A DNA stretch of 64,000 nt from Phoronis australis. Its lineage: Eukaryota > Animalia > Phoronida. The notes below the pieces were generated by a model that searched no databases, was not told where the DNA came from, and saw nothing but the letters and a program-made list of their open reading frames with translations. Numbering within the stretch: position 1 is the first letter of the stretch; each line of letters starts with the position of its first letter. The stretch spans positions 1 through 64,000 of the forward strand of contig NMRA01000532.1 in NCBI GenBank assembly GCA_002633005.1, read 5' to 3'. This document shows positions 1 to 54,111 of the stretch, in pieces. The translations under genes were made by a program, and so were the position numbers.

Positions 1-1508
1 TACAAAGGGATGTTGAATGTAACCATGCCAAAAATTGAACTTTGACACTTGGCTTACCTCAAAATCCAACTGCTGCCTGTGGTTTGGTAATTGGCTCAAT
101 TATGTTGCACACCCAGCGGAATGAACGAGGAACATCGGGTGGCAACATTATACAATTTTGTCAGGTTGTAAAGCTCGTATTTCTTGTACAGGTTTCAAAA
201 ATATAAAATCCTGCTCGTGTACTTTTTATGGACTTTTTCCTGTTTAAAAGCTTTCAAAACGCAAACTTAAAATACTAATGCCACACCCAATGTGGTTATG
301 ATGGGTCTGATTTTCTAGATAACGGTAACATCAGCAGCCCAAGGCAATGTTATTAACTGCTGCAGCATGGTGTCATTGATCAATGCCAAGGTGCGAAAAC
401 CGGTCGAGTTTGCCATTCTTGACCAGTGAGGGTGTCAAAATGTCTAAATCTCCACTATTATAACTCACGTGTGGCTTAGCATCCACTTCTAATATATGTA
501 AGTGGGACGTACTCAAGGGTGTTCTCAGTCAAACAAGAGTCCCGCAAAAGCTAAGTTTCCAAAATGTATGTGTCACGTCAATTCATTTTTCAGTTATTCG
601 TGCTGGAAAAGACACAATAAAGAAATTATGAAATGGTTTTCTATTTTTTTATGCCATCACAGTTATAGTACTTACATGAGTGCAAAAGAGGTCAAGATAT
701 TCTGTTAAGAAACTCGACTTTTCTCAAAACTTCTAAATTTTTGTGCGGCCTTGGTCGGCTTAATGCCCACTTGCTGATTTTTATGTGTCTCAATTTGAGT
801 GCCCAACTGCATTTATGTTAATGTGTATGAGTAAGGTAATAATTGTGAACTTGTAGTAATTGATCATTCTTGGCTTTTTTTTATTTCTTTAGGTTAGTAT
901 CTTTGTGACCATCACCGCCTGTCATTGACGATGATGCCGCCTGTCATCGACCATCAGCCAATCGACTGCATGCATTAATGAACATGACATCTACGCTTGC
1001 CCTCATCGACTAGTGGCGTATTGACTACACCAAAGAATGACACCTGCCTGCCATCAACTGTGCATAGTAAAGATGAACTGAAGTTCAGGGAGTTCTTTTA
1101 CACCTTTAGTGCTAATCATACTTAGAAGGTTTCACAGGCAAGTTTGGCCGAATGCCAACTGCCCAAATTTACAAATTTTGACATTTGAATGTTTACACTT
1201 TGCGTATATGTCCACATTTAATTTCTACACCTGCATGAGACTTTCATAAAAGTGTGTCTTTGGGAGTCCCAGTTTGCCAAAAATTTTAGCTCCAAAAATA
1301 GTTATTTTGGTAACTCGTAATTTCATGTAAATCCATTTCACGGTTCACGACAACCACCCGAAGTAGTTTGGCAGATGGGCGAGGAATTCATGGTCATAAC
1401 CGCTAATTCTGTCATCATGTTGGGGAATTCCAGGTCGTTCTGGTTGATCACTGTGCTGTGTACTGTGCTGTCCGCATATCAACTGTGCATGTATCGGCGA
1501 CTGTCCAT

Positions 1509-1781
1509 NNNNNNNNNNNNNNNNNNNNNNNNNNNNNNNNNNNNNNNNNNNNNNNNNNNNNNNNNNNNNNNNNNNNNNNNNNNNNNNNNNNNNNNNNNNN
1601 NNNNNNNNNNNNNNNNNNNNNNNNNNNNNNNNNNNNNNNNNNNNNNNNNNNNNNNNNNNNNNNNNNNNNNNNNNNNNNNNNNNNNNNNNNNNNNNNNNNN
1701 NNNNNNNNNNNNNNNNNNNNNNNNNNNNNNNNNNNNNNNNNNNNNNNNNNNNNNNNNNNNNNNNNNNNNNNNNNNNNNNNN
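1509..1781. other. Assembly gap with duplicated flanks (1072-1508 vs 1784-2224)
   Basis: N run; the segment is single-copy in repeat copy 2. Confidence 0.9.
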
Positions 1782-2040
1782 ACAGATGAACTGAGGTTCA
1801 GGGAGTTCTTTTACACGTACCTTTAGTGCTAATCATACTTAGAAGGTTTCACAGGCAAGTTTGGCCGAATGCCAAGAGCCCAAATTTACAAATTTTGACA
1901 TTCAAATGTTCACACTTTGCGTAGTGTCCACATTTAATTTCTACACCTGCATGAGACTTTCATAAAAGTGTGTCTTTGGGAGTCCCAGTTTGCCAAAAAT
2001 TTTAGCTCCAAAAATACTTATTTTGGTAACTCGTAATTTC

Positions 2041-3883
2041 ATGTAAATCCATTTCACAGTTCACGACAACCACCCGAAGTAGTTTGGCAGATGGGCGAGG
2101 AATTCATGGTCATAACCGCTAATTCTGTCATCATGTTGGGGAATTCCAGGTCGTTCTGGTTGATCACTGTGCTATGTACTGTGCTGTCCGCATATCAACT
2201 GTGCATGTATCGGCGACTGTCCATTGATCGAAGATTGCCGTTTAATCTCTGAGTATCGGCTGTTCGTGTGTTGATGCCTTGGGTCAACTGGTCGCATATC
2301 AACCATCCACTTCCCGAGGAATGTCTATACATTGAAGATCGCCATCTGCTGTCTACATATCGAACATTCACGTATCAAAGGAGCATTCAGATATCGAGGA
2401 TTGGTATCTTCTGTCCACAAACTGATTGTTCACGCATCAATGTCTGCCATCGGCTGTTCACATATCGATTGTCCACACACTGAGTAGCATCCCACATCAC
2501 GGATTGCCATCTGTCGTTCGCATGTCAACCTTCCACACATAGAGGAACGTCCACATATCCAGGATTGCCATCGACTGTTTGTGTATCGGCTACCCACACA
2601 TTGTGGAACTTCCAGACATTCGAGGATTGCCCTCTTCTGTCCGTATGTTGACCATCCACATATCGAGAACTGTTCATGTATCAAAGATTGCCATCTTCTG
2701 TGCACATGTCAACCATCCACACACTGAGAAATGTTCACTTATCAAGGATGACCTTCTACTGTCTACAAACCACCTGTTCACGCAACGATGTCTACCATCA
2801 GCCATTAGCATTTCGATCTTCTTCACATCAAGGAATGTTCACACATCTAGGATTTTCATCTCCCATCCTCCTGCTGACCATAGTTCCATTGATGTTTGCC
2901 CTTGATCATATGCATCTTGACTGTCCCCCCACCGGGATAGTCAATATGCATATGGTCAATGGACTGTATGTATAATGACTGTCCCGGTGGGGGGACAGTC
3001 ATTATGCATACGGTGGATGGCAGGCATCACTGGACACATGATCGGTAGGTGAATGGTAGTTGACGATTCTAGCTGTGTGAATGTTCCACGATGTGTGGAA
3101 GGTTGTTATGCGGATGGCCAATGGTAGATGTTGTTGTGGGAACAGTTGTTTTGTGGCCGGTAGATGGTGAACCTTGATGAGTGGATGTTTATCGGTGTGA
3201 AGGTGGTTGATATGTGTACGAAAGATGGCGATCCTTGATGCATGGACATTTCTTGGTATGGGGAAGGTTGACATATAGATAGTAGATGGTAATGCTTGAA
3301 TGAATGGATGTTCCACGATATGTGGGCTGTCGATATGCAAACAGTTGAAGGTAATCTTGGATATGGGATGTTCCACTATGCGTGGATGGTTGACATGTGT
3401 ACAACAGATGACAATCTTTGATGCTAGGATGTTTCTTGGTGTTTGGAGGATCGTCATGCGAACAGTTGATGACAGCCATTGATGTGCAAACAGTCGGTTT
3501 GTGGACAGAAGATGACGACCCTCGATGTGTGGATGCAGGCCTTGATATGTGAATGATCGGTATGTAGATGTTAGATGGTGAACTTTGATGCATGGATGTT
3601 CCTCGATGTGTGAATGGTTGACATGCGAACAGTTGATATCAGGTGTCGATGTTCGAACAGTTTTTATTTGGAGATTAGACGGAAGGCTTTGATGTATGGA
3701 CACTCTTTGATGCCTGCACAGTTGATATAGGGATTCCATAATACACTGCAAAGGGATCAGATGAATTGATCGAGAATTCACCAATAAGATGGCCGAATTA
3801 GCTCTAAGTGAACAGAACTTCCTGCTGATTCAGTCTCAGTACTTCTGCTGGCTACGTCGTAAACTATTAATATGTTTAACATC
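2041..3883 (+). ncRNA. Putative ~1.8-kb rod-like hairpin RNA (long inverted repeat, 4-nt apical loop at 2958-2961), copy 1
   Basis: Arms pair in register (2957:2962, 2919:3000, 2118:3802) at roughly 70% identity, with transition mismatches mostly G:U-compatible on +. The inverted repeat is certain; RNA function is inferred. Confidence 0.55.
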
Positions 3884-6800
3884 CATGTATCGAGAAATAT
3901 CCAAACTATTGTTTGTGCATTAATGATCGTGCACTATGATTGTTTGAAAAATGGATAAGGTCACTGGCAATTTGACAGTTTGGGTTAACAGCCATCCCCG
4001 ATTATCTCAAAAATTCTCCTTAGGCATTGATGCGCGGCTTAACTTGCATGTCACCGTGATGGGCACTTATCTTGTAGTTAATTTGGTGATTATCAGATCT
4101 TTTCAGCATGATGCCCTGTGGTAGTGTCGTCTGCTCACCATCCGTGTAACCTGGATCACCATCTGCAGACCTTCACCTATACTGATGCAAGTGTTAATGA
4201 GTTTCAAGACCGTGAGTTGTGTTATGACAATGTTGTTACTGTATAAAAAAGAACTGAAGGTGTTCAGGGACACCAATCCCTAGTTTCAGCCATTCACTCT
4301 AGTAAAGAGGATGATGGGATTGCAGATGGCTATATGTACCGTCAACAATCTGACTTCCAGCATCAGCACATATGATTGACAGCTATCGATGGGCAAGGTA
4401 ATATGAATGTATGAGGACATGTTTAGGATGAGTGTGACAATATGCCGAGGCATGAATGTGATGATGACGACAACGATGTACGTGAGTGTGTGCATTATGA
4501 GTTTTTTGCATGACGGGATGTCAATCAAGTTAAATAGGTAAAAGTCTTCCTCGTGAAAATGGTAAAACTTTCCTGTCAATTTTTTTCACGACAGGATGTC
4601 CATCAGGTTAAAGGGGTAAAATCTTCCCCCATGAAAAGCTGAAACTTTCGTTGAGTTTTCTCAACAGAGGATGTTACTTGAGGGGAGATTAGCGCCACTG
4701 CTACTGAACTGAAGAAACAGCGGATCATTAAATTCAGTCTTGCAAACTGGGTAAAGTCTTGCCTGGTGGGTTGATGACAATTCTTTAAGTGTCAGTGGTT
4801 AATGAATCCAGAACGTGTGACGAATTAATTGTGAAATGATATGAAACTGAAGAACCCATGATATGCTGTGACTAAATTGAAACCATTGAGTGACAAAGCT
4901 AATTGCGAAAAATAAATGAACCCAAAACATACGAAAATTAATGAACCAAGGAAGTGCGAGTTAATGACAAAAACCTGAAAAAGAGTGTAAACCAAACGAA
5001 ACTATGAAATATGAAAAATTGATGGACCAATGAAATGGGAAACTTTAATGAATTCATAAATTATCACAAGGCTTAGAAGGTGTAACGAACCAACTGAACT
5101 TGTAAAATGAGAGGGTGACATATAAAGACATGCTGGTAAAAACCCACTTGAAAAAGCAAGAACCCATAAAATGTTGAGTGTGATGAATAAAATGGGAGAA
5201 ATAACTGAATCCACAGAATGTGAGAATTTATGAATGAACAAAATGCTACTCAAACAAACCTGTGGTTGCCCAAATTAAACGCAAGCGATAAATCTGTAAA
5301 ATGCTATGACTAAATAAAACCACTGAGAGCAATGAAGGAAAATGTGAAAAACAAATGGAGGAAATACCAGGGTATATTCACACACTGTAAATAAGTTAAG
5401 TCTGGACTGTTGAGTAAAGGTACTAAATTCTTTGCCATCAATATGTTTCCAGGTAAAAGAGAAATTCCTTACCCCAAGGAAATTCGAGGAGATGAAAGCA
5501 AACAAAGTGGGCTGGAACAGCGACTAGTTATTGAATTTGTAAAATCTGAAAAATTAAAGAAAAGTGCAAAAACAGGATGATCTTGTAATGAAATGAGAAA
5601 ATTAAGAAAACCACAATAGACATTGAAAAATTTACAAAATGTGTATAAAATGATCGCTAAAAAACAAAAAGTAAAGTACAGTCATGGATGAGTGAAGGGA
5701 TTAATTGCTAAAAAGTCATGAAACAGGTGTTCAGTGATGAACTTGAAATTATGCAAAAATTACCAATTATTGAATTACTAGGTCATAAGGCAATGATCCC
5801 ACCAAAATGAAATGGCAAAATGCGATGGACGTAATGAACACACCAAATAGATGAACTTGCAAAATGTGGTATTACTGATGCACAAGGACACCTATATGCT
5901 GGCAAAAACCAGTTAATATAAGAAAAATTTGCTAAGCTAATGAAACTTTAATTAATGGAACGAGCGAATGATGACTATGTAAAACGAGTCCTGTAGCAGG
6001 ACTGATAGACCAACAAAGGTGCAGAGAGGAATTGTTTGATAAAAGAACAGTCATCTGATCAGCTATATCTGGAATACATGAGAATAATAACTCGGTGAGA
6101 GAAAGCTTATGCATATGGTAGACAGTGCTTGATGAGATCCATTGTCGACATGCCAAGTTTAGGTAAATACTATCAAGGAAAGCAGGAGATACAACACAGA
6201 TAATCAATAAAAGGAACAGGACCCCTTGGAAAATCTCAAGAACTGAAAGTCTACGAAAAACAATTGGCAAAATTCAGATGGTAGTACTTTATGCAACCTT
6301 ATTCATACACCAAATTTCAAAAAATCCCATGTTTCCGTAATGCAGCAAACTGAGAAATAGATGTCACTGCACCATCTCGCATCACTCAAACAATAGGCCT
6401 TGAGCTAATACAGTAACCTGGAGTGTGAATTTCATGTCGATCTAGTAGGTGAAAAAGTGACCTGTAGCACGAGTGTCATACAAACATAGGTGCAGAAAGG
6501 AATTGGTTAATAACAGAGCAGTCATCTGAATATTGAGTATTTCAATAACAGTAAGTTGAATTAAAACTAATACTGCAACGCATATATCACTTCATGAGGT
6601 CCAGCCATCTGCCTAACTTCAGAAAAATACAGCAATGCCACATCTTGGCAATGTGAAATATCGAAAAACGGCCATCACATGCCATCTTGAATTCCAACCA
6701 AAAACAGTTGAGCTTGAGCTATGAACAAGATGCATGTCAACTGGATAAGAAATTCGACCTGTTGCATGATGGTAGTATGATAGAGCAACACTAAGGCTTT

Positions 6801-9749
6801 GTCAATAAAAGAACAATGATCTAAAGAGAAGAGCAAATTTGAGTGAGAAGCATAAGATGCAGTGCTTGACAAAATTGTTTACATATTAATCATTTTGAGA
6901 AAGATTCATCGAGGGATGCCAGCATGAAAAGTCATTCAACTGAACAGCTGTACCCGAAAAATCCTGAATAACGCGAGATCTGTTGTTGCAAAAGCTAGAT
7001 AGACTATTTATGATAGTCTGCTCTTGAAGAGATTCATCCACATTTACCAACTTTCAAAGAATTTTTTTTCTCCCATTGATGATAGAGCTGTAGCTTCACC
7101 AATCAAAATATCCAAAACAATTGGCCTTTAACTTTGAATGAGACAGTTGTGCGTAATTACATGTTAAGTGGATAAGAAATGCTGTCTGTATCATGCAAAC
7201 AAAGATAAGAAGGTACTCATCCTCTCTTTAATATGTTTGACTAGAGACATCTAATTTATGTTTGGCATATGTGCCGTAATGAACATAGACCATGCGTCAG
7301 GGAAGGTCTGTTATCAGAAATAAATAGGATAGATGGATTTGGGAAAATGTCATTTATTATGATGCAACAGTGAAAATAATGCAAAATACAGTCTTTGAAA
7401 AGAAGGGCATAAAAAATAATAAACAAGAGATGTTTGGGACAGTGCAGGCTCATCTGAGACTAATAGGTTTTTAAGGTGCTGCTCTGAATGGATTTGCCTT
7501 GTGTTATCAACTGTTTCGGACGTTCGGGGTGCCGAAGTGTAGTACATTTCTATACATACATTTTAACATGTAGCAGAGAAGTGTAATAAACCAATAGAAC
7601 TTGCAAGTCTGTTTTTGACTTGCAAAACCAGCTATTTGAGAGATCTGACAACCATTTCAAGGCTATTGTGTGTGAGTTGAATTTTTCGAGACCACTGAAA
7701 AGTTTGCGAAACCAATGCTGAAAAAGTGAACTACACCATTGAACTTAGACGTGGAATGAAGGCATCGAAATAGCCTTCACTTGGAACCGAATCATAAACT
7801 GAGAATCTAGTATACTACGTTCGAACAGTATGTAACATTAACTTTCAACTTGCATAAAGGTTCTTATGGATGAGTACTGTGCGAATTCAAGGCAGATACG
7901 GATCGTATCATTGAGACAATCATTTCTAGCTGTTCAGAAGCAGTAAAAATGAAACTGACTGAAACTGAGTAATCTCAACTGAGACTTGACTGTGGACAAA
8001 ACTACAGCACATACTGCCTAATGTCTTCTCAAGTTTGTAGTATGGACGAGTTGCTGTTCAAACAAATTGTAAGACTGCGTAGACATCAGTCCCACCCATG
8101 TATACAGTGCCACATCCCCAAGTTGTGATAATGAAAATCACCAGGCAAGAACTTTGCAAAAACCAAACCATGAACTGATGAGTTTATACCTGTCATATTT
8201 GAGTGCGCGTGATGCGAAGGTTGTCGAGATGGGTAATAAAAAGTGCAGCACTTGGGTAAGAGAAACCACCGAAAAAGGGGGTAGTAATGGGTGGGAAAAA
8301 ATGAAGAGAGATTAAACTCAAATGCAAGTGCTGCTAATGCGAAGGAATGACAGGAAACATATGGTTACTGAGAACAAAAGGCACGTGATAATCATCAACC
8401 TATAGGTGCCAGAAGCGACCAAACTCGAGGCACAAGACAGAAACAACCAATAGTGAGCCTGGGAAAGAAATGTCCTAGTGCGCTGTGTGTGTGTGCAAAA
8501 GAGCCATATGCGAATCTACACAAGCGATTAATGGACCAGTCCGGAAGCAGGAAAAAGGGGTTCATATTCTCACATTAATATGTTTAACGAGTGAAACAGT
8601 ATTTACATTTGAAGTATGTCTCGAAAATAAAAGGTGTGTCGCAAGCTGTTTCCAGAGATAAAAGGAGACCTGATATAAAAATTGTAAAATTATGGAATTC
8701 ATTGTCACTGACAAGTAATTTACCATGTGTTGCGTTTGTGAGAAAAAAAAGTGTGATTCTTTGTTGAATTGCGCCAAACACCATTGTATAATATGTTGGT
8801 GCAACAAAATAGGGACTTGACCACTGCTTGTCACAATGAACTAAAGGCATTATTAATTGAACAAAACAATGCATCAAGTTAATGGAGTTTTGTGAAATGC
8901 AATAATTGAATGTGTCTGTAGAGTGTCATTAAATAAACAGAGAAATAAATGACCTGTAAAATACTAAATATAATTGAATTCATGAAATTGAGGGAAATAA
9001 AATTCTGCAATCTCATTGATAAACAAGCGTTTCAAGTGGTAAAGAATCCATGAAATGCATCAAGTAAATGGCGTCTTGAGCTACAGCAAGATAATGAAAC
9101 TGAAATTACATGAATTAATGAACTCTCAAATGTGTAAAATGCAGCTATCGAAGGAATGTATTTAATGATAAATCATTAAAAGTTGAGAAATTATTGGTTT
9201 GTTAAAAGCAGTTTTGGAGTACGGAACAAATTAATAATCCCTCAAAATATCACAATCATTAAGCTGTTGTAGTATGACAGAACCCGTAAAATGAACTCAA
9301 TATAGTGTGAAGAAGCAAAATTCTAACTATAAGTGAATCTATAAAATGTAAAAAACAAGTGACCCACAAAAGACGAGTTAATAAACAAGTACAACATGAG
9401 GGTAACCGTAAACGTGAGGGTAACCAAAGTCTCGGAAATTTAAATCGTAAGATGCATCATGGAGTGAAGAAGTAGTGCATCAATTTCCGTGAAGTACGAC
9501 AATTTAATGACTCTGTAGACTGTCATGAAATGAACACAGAAATAAATAACCTGTAAAATTTCAAAAATAAGGAACTGGAACTTGGGAATTAATGAACCCC
9601 TAATCTGTCGGGGATAAAGAAACATTTCATGTGGTAAAGGACCAAGATATGCAACAAATCAATAGGGACCTGAGGTACTGCCAAGTGAATGATATTGGGA
9701 AATTTCTTTGAATAAATGAATCTTCAAAACGTGTTGAATGAACAAGCTG

Positions 9750-11455
9750 ACAACTGATTGAGCCCATCAAATGCATTGAATTACTGAATTCTTAAAATTT
9801 ATGAAATGAACAATTAAGTGCAAAGTAATGAATTAATACAGCCAGAATGTGGTACATTGAAAGTAAATTGAAATTGGATTAAATAAACAAGTGAAAAAAG
9901 GAAAGTAGGGATGGTGAATGAGCAGGTGAAAACAAACCAAATAGCGAATTGACTTTAAATTCAGCTCAAGGAAACACGTTGATCAAACGTGGCTATCAAA
10001 AACCATAGCCTTCTTTACATCAGTATTCTTTCAAGGAACTGACAGACACAGCTCTGGCTAAAACTAAAGTTCATTCACTGTCCTGAGGCTTAAGGGCAAT
10101 GCAGCATTTTTTTCTGCGAGAAGTCATCTGCTAGCATTTGATTCGGTTTACATTTATTTTATGCTGCATCGAATGGTGGTTCCTTTTTTCACAAACTATA
10201 AAATTATGGAATTCTTTGTTGTCGCTGACAATTATCATTGTGTCTCCATTATGTGAGTGAAGCAAGTTGCGTTTCTTGGTTGGATTGAGTCATACACCAG
10301 TGTATAACATGCTGAAACAACACAATGTGTGATTTTGTGTACACAACAAGTTATAAGAGAAATCTTAAATGTTAAGCGAATGAAAAATAGAGACAGCTCA
10401 TTGAACCAATCAAATGCATTGAATTACTGAATTCTGAAAACTTCTAAAATTAACAATTAAGTGCAAAGTCAAAAATTAATACAGCCAGAACATAGTACAT
10501 TGAAAGTAAATTAAATTAATCGAAAGTGCAAAATAAACATGTGAAAAAAGGAAAGTAGGGATGGTGAATGACCAGGTGACAAAAGATGAATAGCAAATTG
10601 ACTTTAAATTCAGCCCAAGGAAACATGTTGACCAAACATGGCTATCAAAACTGTAGCCTTATTTACATCAGTATTCTTCAAAGGAACTGACAGACTCACC
10701 TGGGCCCGGTCTCCAATCTTTTTACTCGAAATGGAACTCGAAATTAGGTTTGGCATTTCTACACTACTTTTGGGCAAACTCAAGATAAGTGTCTATTATT
10801 CTATGCTCGAGTACACAATAACTTACGTAGATAATTTATTGACGTTAGTTCACATTTTGTAAACCCAATATTAAAGCAATTAAAGAAATTTCGAGTTTTT
10901 ACTCGAGTTTGCATAAACTACTATATATTCGAGCACAATCTGACAACCAATTATCTTAAGTTTGCACAAAAGGAGCAGAGAAATTGCCAAAAATAGTTTC
11001 AAGTTCGTTTCGAGTACAAAGATTAGAGACCGGGCCCAGGTTAAAACTAAATTCATTCACTGTCCTGAGGCTTAAGGGCATGCAGCATTTTTTTCAATAC
11101 TCTATTGGGAGAAGTGATTTGGTTGGGTTTACAATTATTTTATGCTGCATCAAGTGCTGGTTCCTTTTTTCACAAATTGTAAAATTATGGAATTCAGTGT
11201 TATCACTGACAATTGCCATTTTGTCTCCATTATATGAGGAAAGCAACTTGTGTTTCTTGGTTGGATTGTGCCATACACCAGACTGAGTGTATAACATGCT
11301 GAAACAGCACAATGAGTGATTTTGTGTACACCACAAGTTATAAGAGTGATCTTAACAAACCAAAGAATGTAATGAAATTAGAAAGGAGTAATGCTTCATG
11401 AATAGAACAAATAAGTGCATTGAATTAATGGAGCTGTGTGAAATGGCACAAAGGA
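9750..11455 (+). repeat. Tandem ~650-bp modules (A/B dimer) of the composite unit
   Basis: Anchor gtgaaaaaaggaaagtagggatggtgaatga at 9891, 10541, 50804, 51452, 53300, 53950 and inverted near 56228, 56851, 61830, 62428. Confidence 0.92.
10703..11036. mobile_element. MITE, probably PIF/Harbinger-type with CWG flanks
   Basis: ~45-bp TIRs (GGCCCGGTCTCYAATCTTT.TACTCGAAA...), flanked by CTG/CAG; absent from sister modules (e.g. 51601-51625). Confidence 0.85.
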
Positions 11456-11665
11456 CCTCTGATTCGTCGATTCAATCGAGGCCTCTGATTGGTCGATTGA
11501 ATCGAGGCCTCTGATTGGTCGATTGAATCGAGGCCTCTGATTGGTCGGTTGAATCGAGGCCTCTGATTGGTCGATTCAATCGAGGCCTCTGATTGGTCGG
11601 TTGAATCGAGGCCTCTGATTGGTCGATTCAATCGAGGCCTCTGATTGGTCGATTGAATCGAGGCC
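11456..11665. repeat. 26-bp minisatellite (CCTCTGATTGGTCGRTTSAATCGAGG) x ~8
   Basis: Near-perfect tandem units visible directly. Confidence 0.97.
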
Positions 11666-12607: not shown

Positions 12608-12707
12608 AGGATATGTGCGGCAAGTTTACCTTTGCTGCACCAAGCTATTCTGTTCTGGAGAGTGCTGGCACGCTAGAAGTGGATGTGTTGTTTCACCGCA
12701 AGAAAAT
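12608..12707 (+). CDS. NCX: NCX exon: start of Calx-beta domain CBD1 ([32 protein letters not shown])
   Basis: ttatag acceptor (12610 is an alternative AG), gtgagt donor at 12708; F.F.AP.Y.VLE..G Calx-beta A/B strands. Confidence 0.9.
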
Positions 12708-39870: not shown

Positions 39871-42800
39871 GTTGAACCTCGGGTAAAAGAATGGGAAATT
39901 TATTTCACTTCCAAGAGTTTGATGAATGTTTATGAAACTTTACTATCATATCATTGTCCGAAATTCCAAGAGACTTTCCCAAACTGGAAACTTTTTACCA
40001 CACATGTTTGGGACTCAGAGTACTACGCTGTTTGAAAATTATGATTTAACCAAACATTGCTTAATTGCTGTTACTCGCTGATATTCCCTAAAAGTTCCTG
40101 GAAAAATGCTGAAAGCATGTTTTTTAGGTTTTCATTTCTGTTTCAGGGATTCAGAGAAATTCATTAGGATGGAATGTTACAACTCCAAGTACAATACTCT
40201 TGTGATTGAAGAATATCCACCGATAGAGGATGACCTGACCTTCAACCTATCGACCTCATCATTGAGAATCCCTCGCTTACCTTTCCGAAACAACTGATAG
40301 CTAGTAAGTGAAATTTGCAGTTGATTCCGAGATCTAATTTTGTTCTACAGCATCCATAACCTTTGAGTTTATGTGACAATTCAAAGCTAATGACTGCTCT
40401 GCATGTTTATCTTGAAATTTAACTGGAGCAAGGTAATTGCATGAACTCTAGGATTATTTTCCGACCTTATAACACCGACTTCCTTATTGGTTGCATTTTA
40501 AACTACATATCGTTAGAAGACTTAGTATTTAACACTGTGAAGGCTAAGTTTTCGGAATGTAGTGATTTAGATGGTTAAAATATAGTGGGGTTAAAATTTG
40601 AACAATTTGATCATTATACACTAATGGTGGTTAAAAAATACCAAAAACTCAGCGGCCAACACGGGATGAAGACATCATTCTATATTACCGTCATGCACTC
40701 TATAGTTCAAAGATGAATGGATTGTACTAAAAAAGTTTATTAACACACTGTCAACCTCAGCCCGGTCCTCTCAGATTAGCACTTTCTCGATACAATTCTT
40801 ATCATTTCTCTTCATATCAAGTGCTAATTTCCTATATAGCATCATTTCACTTTCAAATTGGAAAACTTGGTCCAACTGAAAATTCCCACACAAACGGCCA
40901 ATGAGCATTCAGAAGTTCTCAATGAATTCTTTCTGTAACTTGCAATTTAAATTGTCATTCAATGGTCACAAAATGTTCACGTAAGTCAAATCAATTGTCA
41001 CTAAAGAAGTAACTATGCCTGGAATTCCCACCAGCAACTGAATAAAGTAAACTTATTCAGCTCTCCGTGGATTCTAATTTGTTTTTCCTACTTTCTGTTC
41101 CATAAGGGAATTGGTTGCCTTCCGATGGACATCATCTCTGAACCCTCCATAGAGTACTTCCCACCCCTGGAACCATAGGATCATTCTGTCTGTAAGTCAT
41201 TTATGACGTAATATAGGTCAAACCCCTAGTGTTTGAGGATTGAAGAAAACCCACACTCCTTCACACGTTTGCTGATAACATCGAAGAGAATTACTTCCTG
41301 CTTTCTCTCGCATACTAGAAACCTTTCCATAATATGTCATTTGGAGCTCCGCCCACGGGTTAATCAGTATTAATCAACCTCAGTTTTTTTGACAAGATTC
41401 TCATAAAAATCCGATTGTTAACTGCCACATAGATCATAAGCATGCAAGACATGGTTTTTCAGGATTGGGTTCTTTCATTTATTGCAGAAACATTGTAGCT
41501 TGAATGGAAAAAAATGTGTAACTTAACAGAACAACACGTTAATTTGCTGGTCACTCAGCTTCAGTTGAGTTTATCACTGTCTGATGATAATCATATCTAC
41601 CCATGGTAAAAATGCGGGCATCATATTAAGCTTGTTACCATGAAAAGGAGACGAATGTCATTTGTTATGATGTAATACAAAGACGAAGTGAAGGGATTGA
41701 GTAGTAACAAAGTCATTTTTTATTTTTTCCGATGGGATGTGTTCTAGCAACTCACATTGTTCTGTGCGTGTGTAAAAATGAGCAAATTGTACAAAGGGAT
41801 GTTGAATGTAACCATGCCAGAAATTGAACTTTGACACTTGGCTTACCTCAAAATCCAACTGCTGCCTGTGGTTTGGTAATTGGCTCAATTATGTTGCACA
41901 CCCAGCGGAATGAACGAGGAACATTGGGTGGCAACTATACAATTGTGTCAGGTTGTAAAACTTGTATTTCTTGTACAGGTTTCAAAAATATAAAATCCTG
42001 CTCGTGTACTTTTTATGGACTTTTTCCTGTTTAAAAGCTTTCAAAACGCAAACTTAAAATACTAATGCCACACCCAATGTGGTTATGATGGGTCTGATTT
42101 TCTAGATAACGGTAACATCAGCAGCCCAAGGCAATGTTATTAACTGCTGCAGCATGGTGTCATTGATCAATGCCAAGGTGCGAAAACCGGTCGAGTTTGC
42201 CATTCTTGACCAGTGAGGGTGTCAAAATGTCTAAATCTCCACTATTATAACTCACGTGTGGCTTAGCATCCACTTCTAATATATGTAAGTGGGACGTACT
42301 CAAGGGTGTTCTCAGTCAAACAAGAGTCCCGCAAAAGCTAAGTTTCCAAAATGTATGTGTCACGTCAATTCATTTTTCAGTTATTCGTGCTGGAAAAGAC
42401 ACAATAAAGAAATTATGAAATGGTTTTCTATTTTTTTATGCCATCACAGTTATAGTACTTACATGANCACCGCCTGTCATTGACGATGACGCCGCCTGTC
42501 ATCGACCATCAGCCAATCGACTGCATGCATTAATGAACATGACATCTACGCTTGCCCTCGTCGACTAGTGGCGTATTGACTACACCAAAGAATGACACCT
42601 GCCTGCCATCAACTGTGCATAGTAAAGATGAACTGAAGTTCAGGGAGTTCTTTTACACCTTTAGTGCTAATCATACTTAGAAGGTTTCACAGGCAAGTTT
42701 GGCCGAATGCCAACTGCCCAAATTTACAAATTTTGACATTTGAATGTTTACACTTTGCGTATATGTCCACATTTAATTTCTACACCTGCATGAGACTTTC

Positions 42801-42879
42801 ATAAAAGTGTGTCTTTGGGAGTCCCAGTTTGCCAAAAATTTTAGCTCCAAAAATAGTTATTTTGGTAACTCGTAATTTC

Positions 42880-44722
42880 ATGTAAATCCATTTCACGGTT
42901 CACGACAACCACCCGAAGTAGTTTGGCAGATGGGCGAGGAATTCATGGTCATAACCGCTAATTCTGTCATCATGTTGGGGAATTCCAGGTCGTTCTGGTT
43001 GATCACTGTGCTGTGTACTGTGCTGTCCGCATATCAACTGTGCATGTATCGGCGACTGTCCATACATCGAAGATTGCCGTTTAATCTCTGAGTATCGGCT
43101 GTTCGTGTGTTGATGCCTCGGGTCAACTGGTCGCATATCAACCATCCACTTCCCGAGGAATGTACATACATTGAAGATCGCCATCTGCTGTCTACATATC
43201 GAACATTCACGTATCAAAGGAGCATCCAGATATCGAGGATTGGTATCTTCTGTCCACAAACTGATTGTTCACGCATCAATGTCTGCCATCGGCTGTTCAC
43301 ATATCGATTGTCCTCACACTGAGTAGCATCCTACATCACGGATTGCCATCTGCTGTTTGCGTGTCAACCATTCACACATAGAGGAACGTCCACATATCCA
43401 GGATTGCCATCGACTGTTTGTGTATCGGCTACCCACACATTGTGGAACTTCCAGACATTCGAGGATTGCCCTCTTCTGTCCGTATGTTGACCATCCACAT
43501 ATCGAGAACTGTTCATGTATCAAAGATTGCCATCTTCTGTGCACACGTCAACCATCCACACACTGAGAAATGTTCACTTATCAAGGATGACCTTCTACTG
43601 TCTACAAACCACCTGTTCACGCAACGATGTCTACCATCAGCCATTAGCATTTCGATCTTCTTCACATCAAGGAATGTTCACACATCTAGGATCTTCATCT
43701 CCCATCCTCCTGCTGACCATGTTTCCGTTGATGCTTGCCCTTGATTGTATGCATCTTGACTGTCCCCCCACCGGGATAGTCAATATGCATATGGTCAATG
43801 GACTGTATGTATAATGACTGTCCCGGTGGGGGGACAGTCATTATGCATACGGTGGATGGCAGGCATCACTGGACACATGATCGGTAGGTGAATGGTAGTT
43901 GACGATTCTAGCTGTGTGAATGTTCCACGATGTGTGGAAGGTTGTCATGCGGATGGCCGATGGTAGATGTTGTTGTGGGAACAGTTGTTTTGTGGCCGGT
44001 AGATGGTGAACCTTGATGAGTGGATGTTTATCGGTGTGAAGGTGGTTGATATGTGTACGAAAGATGGCGATCCTTGATGCATAGACATTTCTTGGTATGA
44101 GGAAGGTTGACATATAGATAGTAGATGGTAATGCTTGAATGAATGGATGTTCCATGATATGTGGGCTGTCGATATGCGAACAGTTGAAGGTAATCTTGGA
44201 TATTGGATGTTCCACTATGCGTGGATGGTTGACATGCGTACAGCAGATGAAAATCCTTGATGCTAGGATGTTTCTTGGTGTTTGGAGGGTCGTCATGCGA
44301 ACAGTTTATGACAGCCATTGATGTGCAAACAGTCGGTTTGTGGACAGAAGATGACGACCCTCGATGTGTGGATGCAGGCCTTGATATGTGAATGATCGGT
44401 ATGTAGATGTTAGATGGTGAACTTTGATGCATGGATGTTCCTCGATGTGTGAATGGTTGACATGCGAACAGTTGATATCAGGTGTCGATGTTCGAACAGT
44501 TTTTATTTGGAGATTAGACGGAAGGCTTTGATGTATGGACACTCTTTGATGCCTGTACAGTTGATATAGGGATTCCATAATACACTGCAAAGGGATCAGA
44601 TGAATTGATCGAGAATTCACCAATAAGATGGCCGAATTAGCTCTAAGTGAACAGAACTTCCTGCTGATTCAGTCTCAGTACTTCTGCTGGCTACGTCGTA
44701 AACTATTAATATGTTTAACATC
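42880..44722 (+). ncRNA. Putative ~1.8-kb rod-like hairpin RNA, copy 2
   Basis: Same architecture offset by about 40839 nt; apex at 43758-43839. Confidence 0.55.
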
Positions 44723-47700
44723 CAAGTATCGAAAAATATCCGAACTATTGTTTGTGCGTTAATGGTCGTGCACTATGATTGTTTGAAAAAAGGATGAGGT
44801 CACTGGCAATTTGACAGTTTGGGTTAACAGCCATCCCCGATAATCTCAAAAATTCTGCTTAGGCATTGATGCGCGGCTTAACTTGCATGTCACCGTGATG
44901 GGCACTTATCTTGTAGTTAATTGGAGATTATCAGATGTACCTTTCAGCATGATGCCCTGTGGTAGTGTCGTCTGCTTACCATCCGTGTAACCTGGATCAC
45001 CATCTGCAGACCTTCACCTATACTGATGCAAGTGTTTGTGAGTTTCAAGACCGTGAGTTGTGTTATGATAATGCTGTTACTGTATAAAAAGATCTAAAGG
45101 TGTTCAGGGACACCAATCCCTAGTTTCAGCCATTCACTCTAGTAAAGAGGATGATGGGATTGCAGATGGCTATATCTACCGTCAACAATCTGACTTCCAG
45201 CATCAGCACATATGATTGACAGCTATCGATGGGCAAGGTAATATGAATGTATGAGGACATGTTTAGGATGAGTGACAATATGCCGAGGCATGAATGTGAT
45301 GATGACGACAACGATGTACGTGAGTGTGTGCATTATGATTTTTTTGCATTACAGGATGTCAATCAAGTTAAATAGGTAAAGTCTTCCTCGTGAAAGTGGT
45401 AAAACATTCCTGTCCAGTTTTTTCACGACAGGATGTCCATCAAGTTAAAGGGGTAAAATCTTCCCCCATGAAAAGCTGAAACTTTCGTAGAGTTTTCTCA
45501 ACAGAGGATGTTACTTGAGTGGAGATTATTGTCATTGCTACTGAACTAAAGAAACAGCGGAGCATTAAATTCATACTTGCTAACTGGGTAAAGTCTTGCC
45601 TTATGGCTTGATGACAATTCTTTAAGTGTCAGTAGTTAACGAATCCGTAACATGTGACGAATTAATGGTGAAATGGTACGAGACTGAAGAATCCATGATA
45701 TGCTGTGACTAAATTGAAACCTTTGAGTGACAAAGCTAATTGTTAAAAACAAATGAACCCAAAACATGCGAAAGTTAATGAACCAGAGAGTGCAAGTTAA
45801 TGACAAAAATCTGCAAAAGAGTAAATCAAACGAAACTATGAAATATGAAAAATTGATGGACCAATGAAATGGGAAACTTTAATGAATTCGTAAAATATCG
45901 CAAGGCCTAGAACGTGTAACGAACCAAACTGAACTTATAAAATGAGAGGGTGACATATTAAGATGTGCTTGTCAAAACCCACTTGAAAAAGCACGAACCT
46001 GTAAAATGTTGAGTGTGATGAATAAAATGGGAGAAACAATTGAATCCACAGAATGTGAGAATTTATGAATGAACGAAATGCTACTCAAACAAACCTGTGG
46101 TTGCCCAAATTAAACACAAGCGATAAATCTGTAAAATGCTATGACTAAATAAAACCACTGAGAGCAATGAAGGAAAATGTGAAAAACAAATGGAGGAAAT
46201 ACCAGGGTATATTCACACACTGTAAATAAGTCAAGTCTGGACTGTTGCAAGAGTAAAGGTACTAAATTCTTTGCCATCAATATGTTTCCAGGTAAAAGAG
46301 AAATTCCTTACCCCAAGGAAATTCGAGGAGATGAAAGCAAACAAAGTGGGCTGGAACAGCGACTAGTTCATGAATTTGTAAAATCTGAAAAATTAATGAA
46401 GTGTAAAGTGCAAAAAACAGGATGATCTTGTAATGAAATGAGAAAATTAAGAAAACCACAATAGACATTGAAAAATTTACAAAATGTGTATAAAATGATC
46501 GCTAAAAAACAAAAAGTAAAGTACAGTAAAGTATATCTGGAATACAGGAGAATAATAACTCGGTGAGAGAAAGCTTATGCATATGGTAGACAGTGCTTGA
46601 TGAGATCCATTGTCGACATGCCAAATTTAGGTAAATACTATCAAGGAAAGCAGGAGATACAACACAGATAATCAATAAAAGGAACAGGACTCCTTGGAAA
46701 ATCTCAAGAACTGAAAGTCTACGAAAAACAATTGGCAAAATTCAGATGGTACTTTATGCAACCTTATTCATACACCAAATTTCAAAAAAATCCCATGTTT
46801 ACGTAATGCAGCAAACTGAGAAATAGATATCACTGCACCATCTCGCGTCACTCAAACAATAGGCGTTGAGCTATTACAGAAACCTGGAGTGTGAATTTCA
46901 TGTCGATCTAGTAGGTGAAAAATGTGACCTGTAGCACGAGTGTCATACAGACATAGGTGCAGAAAGGAATTGGTTAATAGCAGAGCAGTCATCTGAATAT
47001 TGAGTATTTCAATAACATTAAGTTGAATTAAAACTAATGCTTCAACGCATATATCACTTCATGAGGTCCAGCCATCTGCCTAACTTCAGAAAAATACAGC
47101 AATGCCACATCTTGGCAATGTGAAATATCGAAAAACAGCCATCACATGCCATCTTGAATTCCAACCAAAAACAGTTGAGCTTGAGCTATGAACAAGATGC
47201 ATGTCAACTGGATAAGAAATTCGACCTGTTGCACGATGGTAGTATGATGGAGCAACACTAAGGCTTTGTCAATAAAAGAACAATCATCTAAAGAGAAGAG
47301 CAAATTTGAGTGAGAAGCATAAGATGCAGTGCTTGACAAAATTGTTTACATATTAATCATTTTGAGAAAGATTCATCGCGGGATGCCAGCATGAAAAGTC
47401 ATTCAACTGGACAGCTGTACCCGAAAAATCCTGAATAACGCGAGATCTGTTGTTGCAAAAACTGGATAGACTATTTATGATAGTCTGCTCTTGAAGAGAG
47501 TCATCCACATTTACCAACTTTCAAAGAAATCTCCCATTGATGATGGAGCTGTAGCTTCACCAATCAAAATATCCAAAACAATTGGCCTTTAACTTTGAAT
47601 GAGACAGTTGTGTGTAACTACGTGTTGAGTGGATTAAAAATGCTGTCTATCATGTAAACAAAGATAAGAAGGTACTCATCCTCACTTTAATATGTTTGAC

Positions 47701-50700
47701 TAGAGACATCTAATTTATGTTTGGCATATGTGTCGTAATGAACATAGACCATGCGTCAGGGAAGGTCTGTTATCAGAAATAAATAGGATAGATGGATTTG
47801 GGAAAATGTCATTTATTATGATGCAACAGTGAAAATAATGCAAAATACAGTCTCTGAAAAGAAGGGCATAAAAAATAATAAACAAGAGATGTTTGGGACA
47901 GTGCAGGCTCATCTGAGACTAATAGGTTTTTAAGGTGCTGCTCTGAATGGATTTGCCTTGTGTTATCAACGTTCGGGGTGCCGAAGTGTAGTACATTTCT
48001 ATACATACATTTTAACATGTAGCAGAGAAGTGTAATAAACCAATAGAACTTGCAAGTCTGTTTTTGACTTGCAAAACCAGCTATTTGAGAGATCTGGCAA
48101 TCATTTCAAGGCTATTGTGTGTGAGTTGAATTTTTCGAGACCACTGAAAAGTTTGCGAAACCAATGCTGAAAAAGTGAACTACACCATTGAACTTAGACG
48201 TGGAATGAAGGCATCGAAATAGCCTTCACTTGGAACCGAATCATAAACTGAGAATCTAGTATACTACGTTCGAACAGTATGTAACATTAACTTTCAACTT
48301 GCATAAAGGTTCTTATGGATGAGTACTGTGCGAATTCAAGGCAGATACGGATCGTATCATTGAGACAATCATTTCTAGCTGTTCAGAAGCAGTAAAAATG
48401 AAACTGACTGAAACTGAGTAATCTCAACTGAGACTTGACTGTGGACAAAACTACAGCACATACTGCCTAATGTCTTCTCAAGTTTGTAGTATGGACGAGT
48501 TGCTGTTCAAACAAATTGTAAGACTGCGTAGACATCAGTCCCACCCATGTATACAGTGCCACATCCCCAAGTTGTGATAATGAAAATCACCAGGCAAGAA
48601 CTTTGCAAAAACCAAACCATGAACTGATGAGTTTATACCTGTCATATTTGAGTGCGCGTGATGCGAAGGTTGTCGAGATGGGTAATAAAAAGTGCAGCAC
48701 TTGGGTAAGAGAAACCACCGAAAAAGGGGGTAGTAATGGGTGGGAAAAAATGAAGAGAGATTAAACTCAAATGCAAGTGCTGCTAATGCGAAGGAATGAC
48801 AGGAAACATATGGTTACTGAGAACAAAAGGCACGTGATAATCATCAACCTATAGGTGCCAGAAGCGACCAAACTCGAGGCACAAGACAGAAACAACCAAT
48901 AGTGAGCCTGGGAAAGAAATGTCCTAGTGCGCTGTGTGTGTGCAAAAGAGCCATATGCGAATCTACACTAACGATTAATGGACCAGTCCGGAAGCAGGAA
49001 AAAGGGGTTCATATTCTCACATTAATATGTTTAACGAGTGAAACAGTATTTACATTCGAAGTATGTCTCGAAAATAAAAGGTGTGTCGCAAGCTGTTTCC
49101 AGAGATAAAAGGAGACCTGATATAAAAATTGTAAAATTATGGAATTCATTGTCACTGACAAGTAATTTACCATGTGTTGCGTTTGTGAGAAAAGTAAATT
49201 GTGATTCTTTGTTGAATTGCGCCAAACACCATTGTATAATATGTTGGTGCAACAAAATAGGGACTTGACCACTGCTTGTCACAATGAACTTATACCCCCA
49301 AAGAATGTAGTAAAATTTGAATGGTAAAAGGCATTATTAATTGAACAAAACAATGCATCAAGTTAATGGAGTTTTGTGAAATGCAATAATTGAATGTGTC
49401 TGTAGAGTGTCATTAAATAAACAGAGAAATAAATGACCTGTAAAATACTAATATAATTGAATTCATGAAATTGAGGGAAATAAAATTCTGCAATCTCATT
49501 GATAAACAAGCGTTTCAAGTGGTAAAGAATCCATGAAATGCATCAAGTAAATGGCGTCTTGAGCTACAACAAGATAATGAAACTGAAATTACATGAATTA
49601 ATGAACTCTCAAATGTGTAAGTTGCAGCTATCGAAGGAATGTATTTAATGATAAATCATTAAAAGTTGAGAAATTATTGGTTTGTTAAAAGCAGTCTTGG
49701 AGTACGGAACAAATTAATAATCCCTCAAAATATCACAATCATTAAGCTGTTGTAGTATGACAGAACCCGTAAAATGAACTCAATATAGTGTGAAGAAGCA
49801 AAATTCTAACTATAAGTGAATCTATAAAATGTAAAAAACAAGTGACCCACAAAAGACGAGTTAATAAACAAGTACAACATGAGGGTAACCGTAAACGTGA
49901 GGGTAACCAAAGTCTCGGAAATTTAAATCGTAAGATGCATCATGGAGTGAAGAAGTAGTGCATCAATTTCCGTGAAGTACGACAATTTAATGACTCTGTA
50001 GACTGTCATGAAATGAACAGAGAAATAAATAACCTGTAAAATTTCAAAAATAAGGAACTGGAACTTTGGAATTAATGAACCCCTAATCTGTCGGGGATAA
50101 AGAAACATTTCATGTGAAAAATGACCCATGATATGCAACAAATCAATAGGGACCTGAGGTACTGCCAAGTGAATGAAATTGTGAAATTTCTTTGAATTAA
50201 TGAATCTTCAAAATGTGTTGAATGAACAAATCTGTGATCAGTAATCGAATAATCCCTGTTTAGAATGGAACTATCAAGGGAATGTTGATATAATTGGAAG
50301 CTTTGAAGAGTCATGATGAATTGACAAACCTTTAAAAGATAAGAAATTGTTGTTTCTGTGTAATGCAGGGAATTAAGGATTGGTGAAACAGTGCAATAGT
50401 ATCTGGTGAATTGATGAATTTAAACCACCACAAATCAACAATAACACAGGTATAGCATAATAATAGATCCTGTAAAATAAACAAAAGCGTTGAGTGCGAG
50501 GAAGCAAAATGCTAAAAATAAATGAAACGTTAGTATAAAATGCGAAAACCAGTGGGCCCTTGAAGTATCATGATTTAATGTAAAGGCATGGTAATCAAAG
50601 TCCTACAGTGTTGCTAGTCAAATATGTCATGCCAATGCTAAATGTTAATGGAAATAAAATAGAGACAACTGATTGAACCCATCAAATGCATTGAATTACT

Positions 50701-53700
50701 GAATTCTTAAAATTTGTGAAATGAACAATTTAGAGCAAAGTAACAAATTAATACTGCCAGAAAATGTTACATTGAAAGTAAATCGAAATTGGATTAAATA
50801 AACGTGAAAAAAGGAAAGTAGGGATGGTGAATGAGCAGGTGACAACAAACTGAATAGCAAATTGAATTTAAATTCAGCTCAAGGAAACACGTTGATAAAA
50901 CGTGGCTATCAAAACCATAGCCTTCTTTACATCAGTATTCTTTCAAGGAACTGACAGACACAGCCTGGCTTAAACTAAAGTTCATTCACCGTCCTGAGGC
51001 TTAAGGGCAATGCAGCATATTTTTCTGCGAGAAGTCATCTGCTAGCATTTGATTTGGTTTACAGTTATTTTATGCTGCATCGAGTGGTGGTTCCTTTTTT
51101 CACAAATTGTAAAATTATGGAACTCTTTGTTGTCGCAGACAATTATCATTGTGTCTCCATTATGTGAGTAAAGCAACTTGCGTTTCTCGGTTGGATTGGG
51201 TCATACACCAGTGTATAACATGCTGAAACAACACAATGTGTGATTTTGTGTACACCACAAGTTATAAGAGAGATCTTAAATGTTAAGCGAATGAAAAATA
51301 GAGACAGCTCATTGAACCCATCAAATTCATTGAATTACTGAATTCTGAAAACTTCTGAAATAAACAATTAAGTGCAAAGTCAAAAATTAATACAGCCAGA
51401 ATATGGTACATTGAAGGTAAATTAAGTAAATCGAAAGTGCAAAATAAACCTGTGAAAAAAGGAAAGTAGGGATGGTGAATGACCAGGTGACAAAAAATGA
51501 ATAGCAAATTGACTTTAAATTCAGCCCAAGGAAACATGTTCATCAAACATGGCTATCAAAACCATCACCATCTTTACATCAGTATTCTTCAAAGGAACTG
51601 ACAGACACAGCTCTGGTTAAAACTAAAGTTCATTCACTATCCTGAGGCTTAAGGGCAATGCAGCATTTTTTTCAATACTCTGTTGGGAGAAGTCATCTGC
51701 TAGCATTTGGTTGGGTTTACAATTATTTTAGGCTGCATCAAGTGGTGGTTCCTTTTTTCACAAATTGTAAATTTATGGAATTCATTGTTATCACTAACAA
51801 CAAGCAACTTGTGTTTCTTGGTTGGATTGTGCAATACACCAATGTTTAACATGCTGAAACAACAGAATTTGTGATTTGATTTTGTGTTCACCACAAGTTA
51901 TAAGAGTGATCTTAACAAACCAAAGAATGTAGTGAAATTAGAAAGGAGTAATGCTTCATGAATTAAACAAATAAGTGCATTGAATTAATGGAGCTGTGTG
52001 AAATGGCACAAAGGAATGAATTGAACAAATAGGACAATGGAATGACTCTGTAGTGTCATTAAGTGAACATCAAAATAAAAGACCTGTAAAATACTAAAAA
52101 TTACTGAACTCACGAAATTTGATGGTTTGTTGATCTCTCATGGATACAGAAGCATTTGAAGTGGTAATTAAAGGCATGAAATGCACAGACTAAAAGGTTT
52201 CTCGAAGTTTGACAAGTGAGTGAAATTGTGTAATTCAATGACTTAATGAATCTTCAAATACTGCAATAAATTGATCCCTGTGTAGAACACACATATCAAA
52301 GGAATCCTTTTAATGATGTAATTGGAAACCGGCAATGTTATAAGGAATCGTGAAATGTGGTGAATTGACAAACCATTAAAAGGAGAGAAAATATTGCTTG
52401 TGTGAAAAGCAATGCAGTAATCACTGCATGGATTTGTGGAACAGAACAAACTAATGGTACAATGATGTCTTAAGAGCCTTTCATACTAACGTCAACGCGT
52501 CGATGGTTTGGGGAGTTGCGGTCAGTATGAACGCTTAAGTGTATCTGTAAAATGTAAAAAACAAGTGACCCACGAAAGACAAGGTAATAAACAAGTACAA
52601 CATGAGGGTAACTGTAAACGTGAGGATAAGCAAAGTCTCAGAAATTTAAATCGTAGGATGCATCATGGAGTGAAGAAGTAGTGCATCAAATTCCGTGAAG
52701 TACGACAATTGAATGACTCTGTAGAGTGTCATGAAATGAACAGAGAAATAAATAACCTGTAAAATTTCACAAATAAGGAACTGGAACTTGGGGGAATTAA
52801 ACAACCCCTACTCTGTCGGGGATAAAGAAACATTTCATGTGGTAAAGGACCCATGATATGCAACAAATCAATAGTGCCAAGTGAATGAAATTGTGAACTT
52901 TCTTTGAATTAATGAATCTTCAAAATGTGTTGAATGAACATATATATGATCGGTAATCGAATAATCCGTGTGTAGAATGGAACTATCAAGGGAATATAAA
53001 AATGCTAAAAATAAATGAAATGTTAGTATAAAATGCGAAAACCAGTGGGCCCTTGAAGTATCATGATTTAATGTAAAGGCATGGTAATCAAAGTCCTACA
53101 GTGTTGCTAGTCAAATATGTCATGCCAATGCTAAATGTTATTGGAAATAAAAATAGAGACAACTGAATGAACCCATCAAATGCATTGAATTACTGAATTC
53201 TTAAAATTTGTGAAATAAACAATTTAGAGCAAAGTAACAAATTAATACTGCCAGAAAATGTTACATTGAAAGTAAATCAAAATTGGATTAAATAAACATG
53301 TGAAAAAAGGAAAGTAGGGATGGTGAATGAGCAGGTGACAACAAATTGAATAGGAAATTGACATTAAATTCAGTTGAAGGAAACACGTTGATCAAACGTG
53401 GCTATCAAAAACCATAGCCTTCTTTACATCAGTATTCTTTCAAGGAACTGACAGACACAGCTCTGGCTAAAACTAAAGTTCATTCACTGTCCTGAGGCTT
53501 AAGGGCAATGCAGCATTTTTTTCTGCGAGAAGTCATCTGCTAGCATTTGATTCGGTTTACATTTATTTTATGCTGCATCGAATGGTGGTTCCTTTTTTCA
53601 CAAACTATAAAATTATGGAATTCTTTGTTGTCGCTGACAATTATCATTGTGTCTCCATTATGTGAGTGAAGCAAGTTGCGTTTCTTGGTTGGATTGAGTC

Positions 53701-54111
53701 ATACACCAGTGTATAACATGCTGAAACAACACAATGTGTGATTTTGTGTACACAACAAGTTATAAGAGAAATCTTAAATGTTAAGCGAATGAAAAATAGA
53801 GACAGCTCATTGAACCAATCAAATGCATTGAATTACTGAATTCTGAAAACTTCTAAAATTAACAATTAAGTGCAAAGTCAAAAATTAATACAGCCAGAAC
53901 ATAGTACATTGAAAGTAAATTAAATTAATCGAAAGTGCAAAATAAACATGTGAAAAAAGGAAAGTAGGGATGGTGAATGACCAGGTGACAAAAGATGAAT
54001 AGCAAATTGACTTTAAATTCAGCCCAAGGAAACATGTTGACCAAACATGGCTATCAAAACTGTAGCCTTATTTACATCAGTATTCTTCAAAGGAACTGAC
54101 AGACTCACCTG

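Follow-up and report, generated by a model that had tools for sequence, protein, structure and literature searches.

A hairpin of 1.8 kb, present in two copies within the 64,000-nt stretch of DNA analysed here (the window), is real and is expressed as a kilobase hairpin RNA that is very probably edited, and there is fair evidence that selection has acted on its duplex. The hairpin is a candidate hpRNA locus by analogy with the hairpin RNA (hpRNA) loci of Drosophila, whose anatomy, transcription from one strand and local amplification it shares. To our knowledge, the animal hpRNA loci with demonstrated function are mainly those of Drosophila. The rod described here is a test of whether invertebrates other than Drosophila purposely maintain long dsRNA of their own, and whether they dice or edit it; if its base-pairing bias is merely mutational, it would be an ordinary edited inverted repeat.

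Anatomy of the hairpin and of the repeat that carries it

The hairpin is composed of two long arms joined by a minimal loop, and its features are as follows:

2041..2957 (+): 5' arm of copy A, made up of a non-repetitive base of about 180 nt, about 640 nt of degenerate 61-nt units and an apex region of about 100 nt
2472..2749 (+): best-kept part of the 61-nt array (TRF, autocorrelation), with sub-blocks of about 18, 18 and 25 nt seen by eye
2908..3011 (+): apex region, with a small hairpin in each arm (sequence by eye; MFE)
2958..2961 (+): terminal loop AATG, 4 nt, closed by the pair 2957:2962
2962..3883 (+): 3' arm of copy A (arm alignment, MFE fold)
42880..44722 (+): copy B, onto which the RNA reads were mapped, with 38 substitutions and no indels relative to copy A

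Global alignment of the 5' arm with the reverse complement of the 3' arm gave 916 pairs, comprising 666 Watson-Crick pairs, 109 G:U pairs, 37 A:C mismatches and 104 transversion mismatches (G:U over A:C, binomial p = 2.0e-9). Seven gap columns occur in six events, one of them terminal and five internal, of 1-2 nt each. Self-BLAST of the palindrome spans 2118-3802 at 73% identity over 1688 columns. These results bear out an earlier sequence-only reading of the window, which had described a palindrome keeping its register up to a 4-nt AAUG loop, nearly free of gaps, with a strand-specific G:U bias and a recurrence at 42880-44722; the latter copy yields 666 Watson-Crick, 113 G:U, 33 A:C and 104 transversion pairs (p = 1.9e-11). 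Because copies A and B are only 38 substitutions and no indel apart, they represent one evolutionary observation and not two. The G:U bias extends along the stem from about position 2141 inwards, and the outermost 100 pairs are free of it (4 G:U, 4 A:C and 26 transversions).

The strand comparison proposed in that reading favours the + strand, with an RNA MFE of −1094 kcal/mol for the + strand against −868 kcal/mol for the − strand; under DNA folding parameters the + strand is again the better of the two (−494 against −432). The MFE fold of the + strand is a straight rod in which 1550 of 1843 nt are paired (84%), closed by the 4-nt loop and with a longest unbroken helix of 26 bp. Alternatively, the tip could fold as a Y, in which each arm forms its own hairpin of about 20 bp with a 6-nt loop (2908-2953 and 2966-3011, by eye).

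Two features had been missed in the first reading: the arms are arrays of 61-nt units, and both hairpins lie inside a repeat of at least 11.7 kb. The middle 640 nt or so of each arm form a degenerate tandem array with a period of 61 and also of 43 and 104 (TRF, autocorrelation), and the order and identity of the 61-nt units are the same in both arms. No match to this repeat that could serve as a candidate target was found elsewhere in the 64-kb window or in protein space; a segment at 906-1075 resembles the unit by eye, and its score of 83 against a shuffle maximum of 80 was not counted. The hairpin occupies an inner part of the large repeat, two copies of which lie within the window:

1..11665 (+): repeat unit A, its left end beyond the window; ORF-poor, with modules of about 300-650 nt, ending in a 26-nt array at 11456-11665
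1325..1508 (+): repeat of the 5' arm's start, where a contig ends ahead of an N run (1509-1781); likely an assembly overlap
41790..55496 (+): repeat unit B, closed by the 26-nt array at 54929-55496; the left end is placed approximately
55490..64000 (−): downstream part of the unit in a third copy, inverted and rearranged, which leaves the window before reaching its hairpin position

Unit B is about 95-99% alike to unit A, block by block. The ORF list and Pfam revealed no convincing coding ORF in the unit, and neither an RT ORF nor a poly(A) tail was seen in it. The inverted third copy may carry another hairpin just past the end of the window.

Several smaller features accompany the repeat. Segments 46532-55496 and 55490-64000 form a multi-kilobase inverted arrangement with 88-99% identity, and the 26-nt array of unit B is located at the junction. 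The two 26-nt arrays, of 8 and 22 copies that are about 95% alike, contain a CCAAT-box-like core and inner palindromes, and end the large repeat. Both units contain, at 10698-11041 and about 54110-54500, a palindromic, MITE-like insertion about 340-390 nt long that has terminal inverted repeats; the inverted copy lacks it at the corresponding place near 56064. The assembly breaks in or near both hairpins, at the N run 1509-1781 and at an N at 42467: sequence 1071-1508 repeats 1784-2224 across the first, and about 230 nt are missing at the second. At a further join, at 34238, sequence 33539-34237 repeats 34239-34917.

Transcription and very probable editing of the + strand

Three paired-end stranded RNA runs from one study, carrying the same species label, were mapped with the same settings to 39300-50400 and to 42880-44722; 18-19% of each raw run was sampled (11-13 million reads), and reads less than 88% alike were excluded. 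Orientation was calibrated by the single GT..AG joint (40303-41107) of a + strand gene, at which all 17 pairs, 4, 8 and 5 in the three runs against 0, had the first mate on the minus strand. On this calibration the + strand supplies 96%, 98% and 87% of the hairpin depth, in agreement with the + strand transcription that the sequence-only reading had expected of stranded RNA-seq. Hairpin reads (229, 199 and 94) occupy all 30 bins in every run, and no single read spans both arms. Only 1 of 229, 0 of 199 and 0 of 94 are at least 99% alike, and the outer ends of the hairpin appear among the reads as several alternative sequences, so that several family members or alleles contribute reads. Transcription of the + strand is therefore shown for the hairpin family and not for a given copy. 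The region of raised depth is:

42268..45235 (+): raised + strand depth around the hairpin, giving the approximate transcript extent in copy B coordinates, with ends unmapped

Read depth falls beyond about 42.3-45.2 kb, and coverage runs into both hairpin flanks. In the RNA contig run X4 the hairpin had almost no depth, a result that does not prove it absent. A very deep two-strand pile-up of reads with many loose ends at 41832-41924 is a high-copy repeat common to other transcripts, and perhaps the end of the large element.

Inside the hairpin, places with A>G changes outnumber those with G>A by about five to one (105:21, 95:21 and 84:17 in the three runs), with no such imbalance between C>T and T>C (28:40, 33:38 and 21:23). 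Outside the hairpin, A>G and G>A are level as well (49:52, 50:47 and 35:31, obtained by subtraction and approximate at the edges), and the contrast between inside and outside is strong (Fisher p = 3e-8, 4e-6 and 4e-5). Since differences between alleles or paralogues should be symmetric, as they are outside the hairpin, the A>G excess points away from such a source. Reads of the opposite orientation provided a further test, drawing on 40 of 319 variable places. Fourteen A>G places had such reads; eight of these carry G there too and look genomic, and six do not (0 of 17 reads), although G is present at the six in 68-94% of sense reads. Strand-limited behaviour was thus seen at 6 of 14 A>G places against 1 of 17 places with other changes (p = 0.028). 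The six all lack a 5' G, which matches the neighbour preference described for ADAR in the accessible text of PMC4408787. Seven of the 18 displayed A>G places sit opposite C, as would fit ADAR and also plain ancestry.

Because the A>G excess is confined to the hairpin, formation of the + strand duplex in vivo, and its A-to-I editing, are very likely; the first reading had proposed A-to-I edits in mapped reads as a check. Editing is evidence of structure and not of function, because in animals generally the transcripts of inverted repeats undergo it, according to the part of PMC5625713 available.

Selection or mutation as the source of the wobble bias

The sequence-only reading had gone further and taken the hairpin to be selected as a + strand dsRNA, naming strand-biased mutation, including fixed editing, as an alternative for the bias. 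The bias is local to the hairpin. Three-copy polarisation of the large element outside the hairpin (2686 columns) gave C>T 11, G>A 17, A>G 15 and T>C 15, which is no bias; four other inverted repeats of the window have G:U to A:C ratios of 8:16, 30:19, 12:20 and 4:3; and the transcribed flanks show little GC skew (−0.09 to +0.04). Within the hairpin, changes polarised on the 61-nt unit run in the wobble direction for both transitions, with C>T 34 against G>A 10 (p = 4e-4) and A>G 19 against T>C 7 (p = 0.03). This polarised bias weakens as the column thresholds tighten, to 19:9 (p = 0.087) for C>T and 17:4 for A>G at a threshold of 0.7, and to 13:3 and 9:3 (p = 0.15) at 0.75. Changes between copies A and B number C>T 11, A>G 5, G>A 5 and T>C 3.

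C>T makes up at least half of the wobble bias, and the reads have no C-to-U excess; fixed editing is therefore not the whole source of the bias. It may contribute a share of the A>G part. A 5' G precedes the G of G:U in 22 of 109 cases (20%) and the A of A:U in 120 of 370 (32%; p = 0.017), and precedes the G of G:C in 65 of 296 (22%). Of the alternatives set out in the first reading, fixed editing accordingly falls for the C>T part, which it cannot give, and may hold for some of the A>G part.

Gaps are also scarce. The arms differ by 5 indels per 250 substitutions. Nine other comparisons within the element gave 75 per 610, or 57 per 610 when homopolymer indels are left out; relative to the latter figure the deficit is 4-5-fold (p = 1.8e-4). 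A point against reading the deficit as selection is that homopolymer runs are rarer in the hairpin (3.8 per kb) than in the control (21.5 per kb). The bias and the indel deficit, both confined to the hairpin, favour selection on the + strand duplex, since the bias is local, includes a C>T part that lies beyond fixed editing, and is accompanied by few indels. Selection as + strand dsRNA, as first proposed, is thus partly supported as a whole, by the + transcription and the hairpin-confined A>G excess together with the wobble bias and the indel deficit. Covariation adds little: one pair, 2514:3404, is double-changed between the copies with pairing kept, and a possible second double change at the base, 42895:44706 (A:U to G:C), was read by eye from loose read ends that are unlinked on one molecule. 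These are too few for a claim of covariation.

A palindrome without function, carried in a mobile or duplicated element, is a rather unlikely alternative to selection on the duplex. One-sided mutation would have produced its bias, either by deamination of the non-template strand or by edits copied back through reverse transcription, conversion would have kept its gaps few, and editing would be clean-up. Its location in a young multicopy repeat is as expected, and inverted repeats of great length abound (77 invertebrate genomes contain 297,317, as given in the available part of PMC8728187) and are edited by default (PMC5625713, likewise in part). Conversion between the arms could also remove gaps, and the A/B differences are indeed clustered in short tracts. 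The lower frequency of 5' G before the G of G:U than before the A of A:U agrees with copied-back edits, but the share equals that of G:C, C>T on the + strand is no rarer than A>G while the reads lack a C>T excess, and the element displays neither of the hallmarks, RT ORF and poly(A) tail, noted above. Nor is there any bias in the flanks of the same transcript or in the remainder of the element. In the inner stem, G:U pairs number 93, exceeding the roughly 35 expected from 62 transversions, and A:C (28) is near expectation; this excess fits wobble tolerance, and also raised deamination.

A candidate hpRNA pathway and its rivals

Under selection on the duplex, the observations can be arranged into a six-step pathway. 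By their anatomy, the arms are a head-to-head duplication of a segment that bears the minisatellite, with 4 nt between them, probably of fold-back origin. The carrier unit of at least 11.7 kb was later amplified, as the two copies and the inverted third part show. Transcription of the + strand, observed for the family, would then yield an RNA that, as the reads strongly indicate, forms a duplex and is A-to-I edited in vivo. Judging from the spectrum of changes, those that keep pairs (C>T and A>G on +, giving G:U) would have been tolerated, and mismatches and bulges purged. Finally, as in Drosophila hpRNAs, Dicer might cut the rod into siRNAs directed against transcripts containing the 61-nt repeat. 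We regard the transcription and editing steps as highly probable and selection that lets wobble through as reasonably probable. The entire chain, a multicopy non-coding hairpin-RNA locus whose rod of about 915 bp is selected and diced into silencing RNAs, is a tentative though quite possible reading; the transversion mismatches that remain (104) and the absence of any unbroken helix beyond 26 bp stand against it. No target or homologue of the hairpin was found in the window, in protein space or among metagenome and viral contigs. Molluscs and Capitella are reported to be without endo-siRNAs in the available portion of PMC12479628; if the host belongs to that group, the dicing step becomes less likely, and more interesting if found.

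The likeness to Drosophila loci is considerable. The hairpin is an extended-duplex inverted repeat that is transcribed, at the family level, from one strand over both arms, and it is non-coding: its only long ORF (275 aa) lies on the minus (antisense) strand, is broken in copy B, has no codon-position pattern, and matches no Pfam family and none of 64 protein candidates at E ≤ 0.01 (candidates of 151-482 aa in length). Nmy/Tmy, hp-CG4068 and the hp-tHMG cluster are likewise described as long, imperfect, non-coding inverted repeats with one-strand transcription and recent local copies, whose arms can derive from repeats and whose small RNAs, as reported for long inverted repeats, carry A-to-G changes (PMC10317233 and PMC8728187, in the parts available). 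The stem here, about 915 bp with a 4-nt loop, is longer than the hpRNA stems of several hundred bp given in PMC12553114 (in part), and its arms are a minisatellite array, 27% diverged. Dependence on Dicer-2 and Ago2, with a precursor that rises in the mutants, characterises hpRNAs in the accessible text of PMC10317233. In a literature search judged by titles and the starts of abstracts, with subscription papers mostly outside its scope, no description of wobble-biased long invertebrate hairpins was found. The broader reading, that a selected rod RNA family of about 900 bp exists in a marine invertebrate lineage reported without endo-siRNAs, is doubtful; it would comprise either non-insect hpRNAs with longer stems or selected, hyper-edited rods that are not diced, and the second of these, if true, would be a class spread by a giant non-coding element.

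A functional long dsRNA that is edited and not diced is a fairly improbable substitute for the siRNA-producing pathway. It would resemble rncs-1, which resists dicing, and would titrate or bind ADAR, Dicer or dsRNA sensors, or form a structural part of the element's RNA. Transcription, editing and the signals of selection are equally expected of such an RNA, and the changes listed at about 100 of the 457 hairpin adenosines, some in 70-90% of reads, would blur the sequence of any siRNA. ADAR-edited inverted repeats are typically two nearby TE copies with a spacer; the hairpin shares with them the missing 5' G at its six best sites, but is a single fold-back, and its wobble bias, old and strand-specific, points to selection together with its scarcity of indels. 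Its sense A>G excess, clustered and limited to the duplex as in ADAR hyper-edited dsRNA, likens it to the editing-enriched regions of C. elegans and to rncs-1 (PMC5625713 and PMC4408787, both in part). A precedent for a long non-coding dsRNA is provided by rncs-1 (PMC4408787), and the endo-siRNAs reported missing in molluscs and an annelid (PMC12479628) are in keeping with it, as far as these sources are available. Recent clustered amplification, described as typical of hpRNA loci in the available text of PMC10317233, speaks for the diced pathway instead.

A giant pri-miRNA, with a basal miRNA duplex and a stem extension of more than 1.5 kb, is very unlikely. The kilobase, highly paired stem recalls the giant miRNA hairpins of invertebrates such as lepidopteran mir-12, precursors with more than 1 kb of structured inter-arm sequence are known, and the base of the hairpin is less well paired; yet molluscs, cnidarians and planarians appear to be without such hairpins (PMC12553114, in its available part). 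No conserved basal miRNA duplex was found, the hairpin is multicopy, and its base is the most variable portion among expressed members (42883-42946 and 44690-44719), unlike a conserved miRNA duplex. Rfam gave no miRNA near its cut-off in the hairpin, the best being mir-2733 at the apex with 30 of 72.9 bits, from models that expect no 1.7-kb insert.

An integrated HDV-like or viroid-like circular rod, which the sequence-only reading had entertained, or the terminal hairpin of a single-stranded DNA element, is largely refuted and exceedingly improbable: the size of 1.8 kb, the 84% pairing, the DNA-parameter fold favouring + and the apex able to form a Y agree with it, but there were no back-splice joints or go-back reads in any of the three raw-read runs (the unspecified library selection could lose circles), no ribozyme family in Rfam (three weak matches, all far below cut-off), no delta antigen ORF by Pfam or protein homology, no family or homologue for the minus-strand ORF, and no resemblance to the window beyond the 26-nt motif at any of the 30 loci (24 metagenome, 6 viral) matched by apex-motif scans, and the arms are an inverted minisatellite duplication with coverage continuing past them into both flanks. 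Foldback DNA transposons (Drosophila FB/Galileo, sea-urchin TU) have long inverted arms of tandem units, as the hairpin does. This reading fails as well, since the arms are 73% alike with no internal spacer, the two copies, each an inner part of a far larger duplicated unit, have kilobases of flanking sequence in common to the left and right, and the target-site duplications that would have marked such a transposon were not seen at the hairpin ends.

Between the two repeat units lies a multi-exon Na/Ca-exchanger gene (12608-27380, +) with Calx-beta and Na_Ca_ex exons by Pfam, including two near-duplicate Calx-beta exons at about 16641 and 17073; the best protein matches of one exon are molluscan (57-63%), cnidarian and annelid (54-63% overall), which makes the host an invertebrate animal and probably a marine one. 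Just upstream of unit B is a spliced gene (37371-41500, +) with candidate exons near 37371-37660, 38726-38874 and 40148-40303, whose intron at 40304-41106 is seen in the reads; the pieces tried gave no convincing Pfam match. A small hairpin of about 90 nt at 33919-34010 has 33 Watson-Crick pairs and scores weakly for MIR9563 (31.6 of 90 bits). Other tandem arrays are located at 15562-15964 (period 65), 22612-22739 (42), 23190-23348 (27) and 39033-39170 (27).
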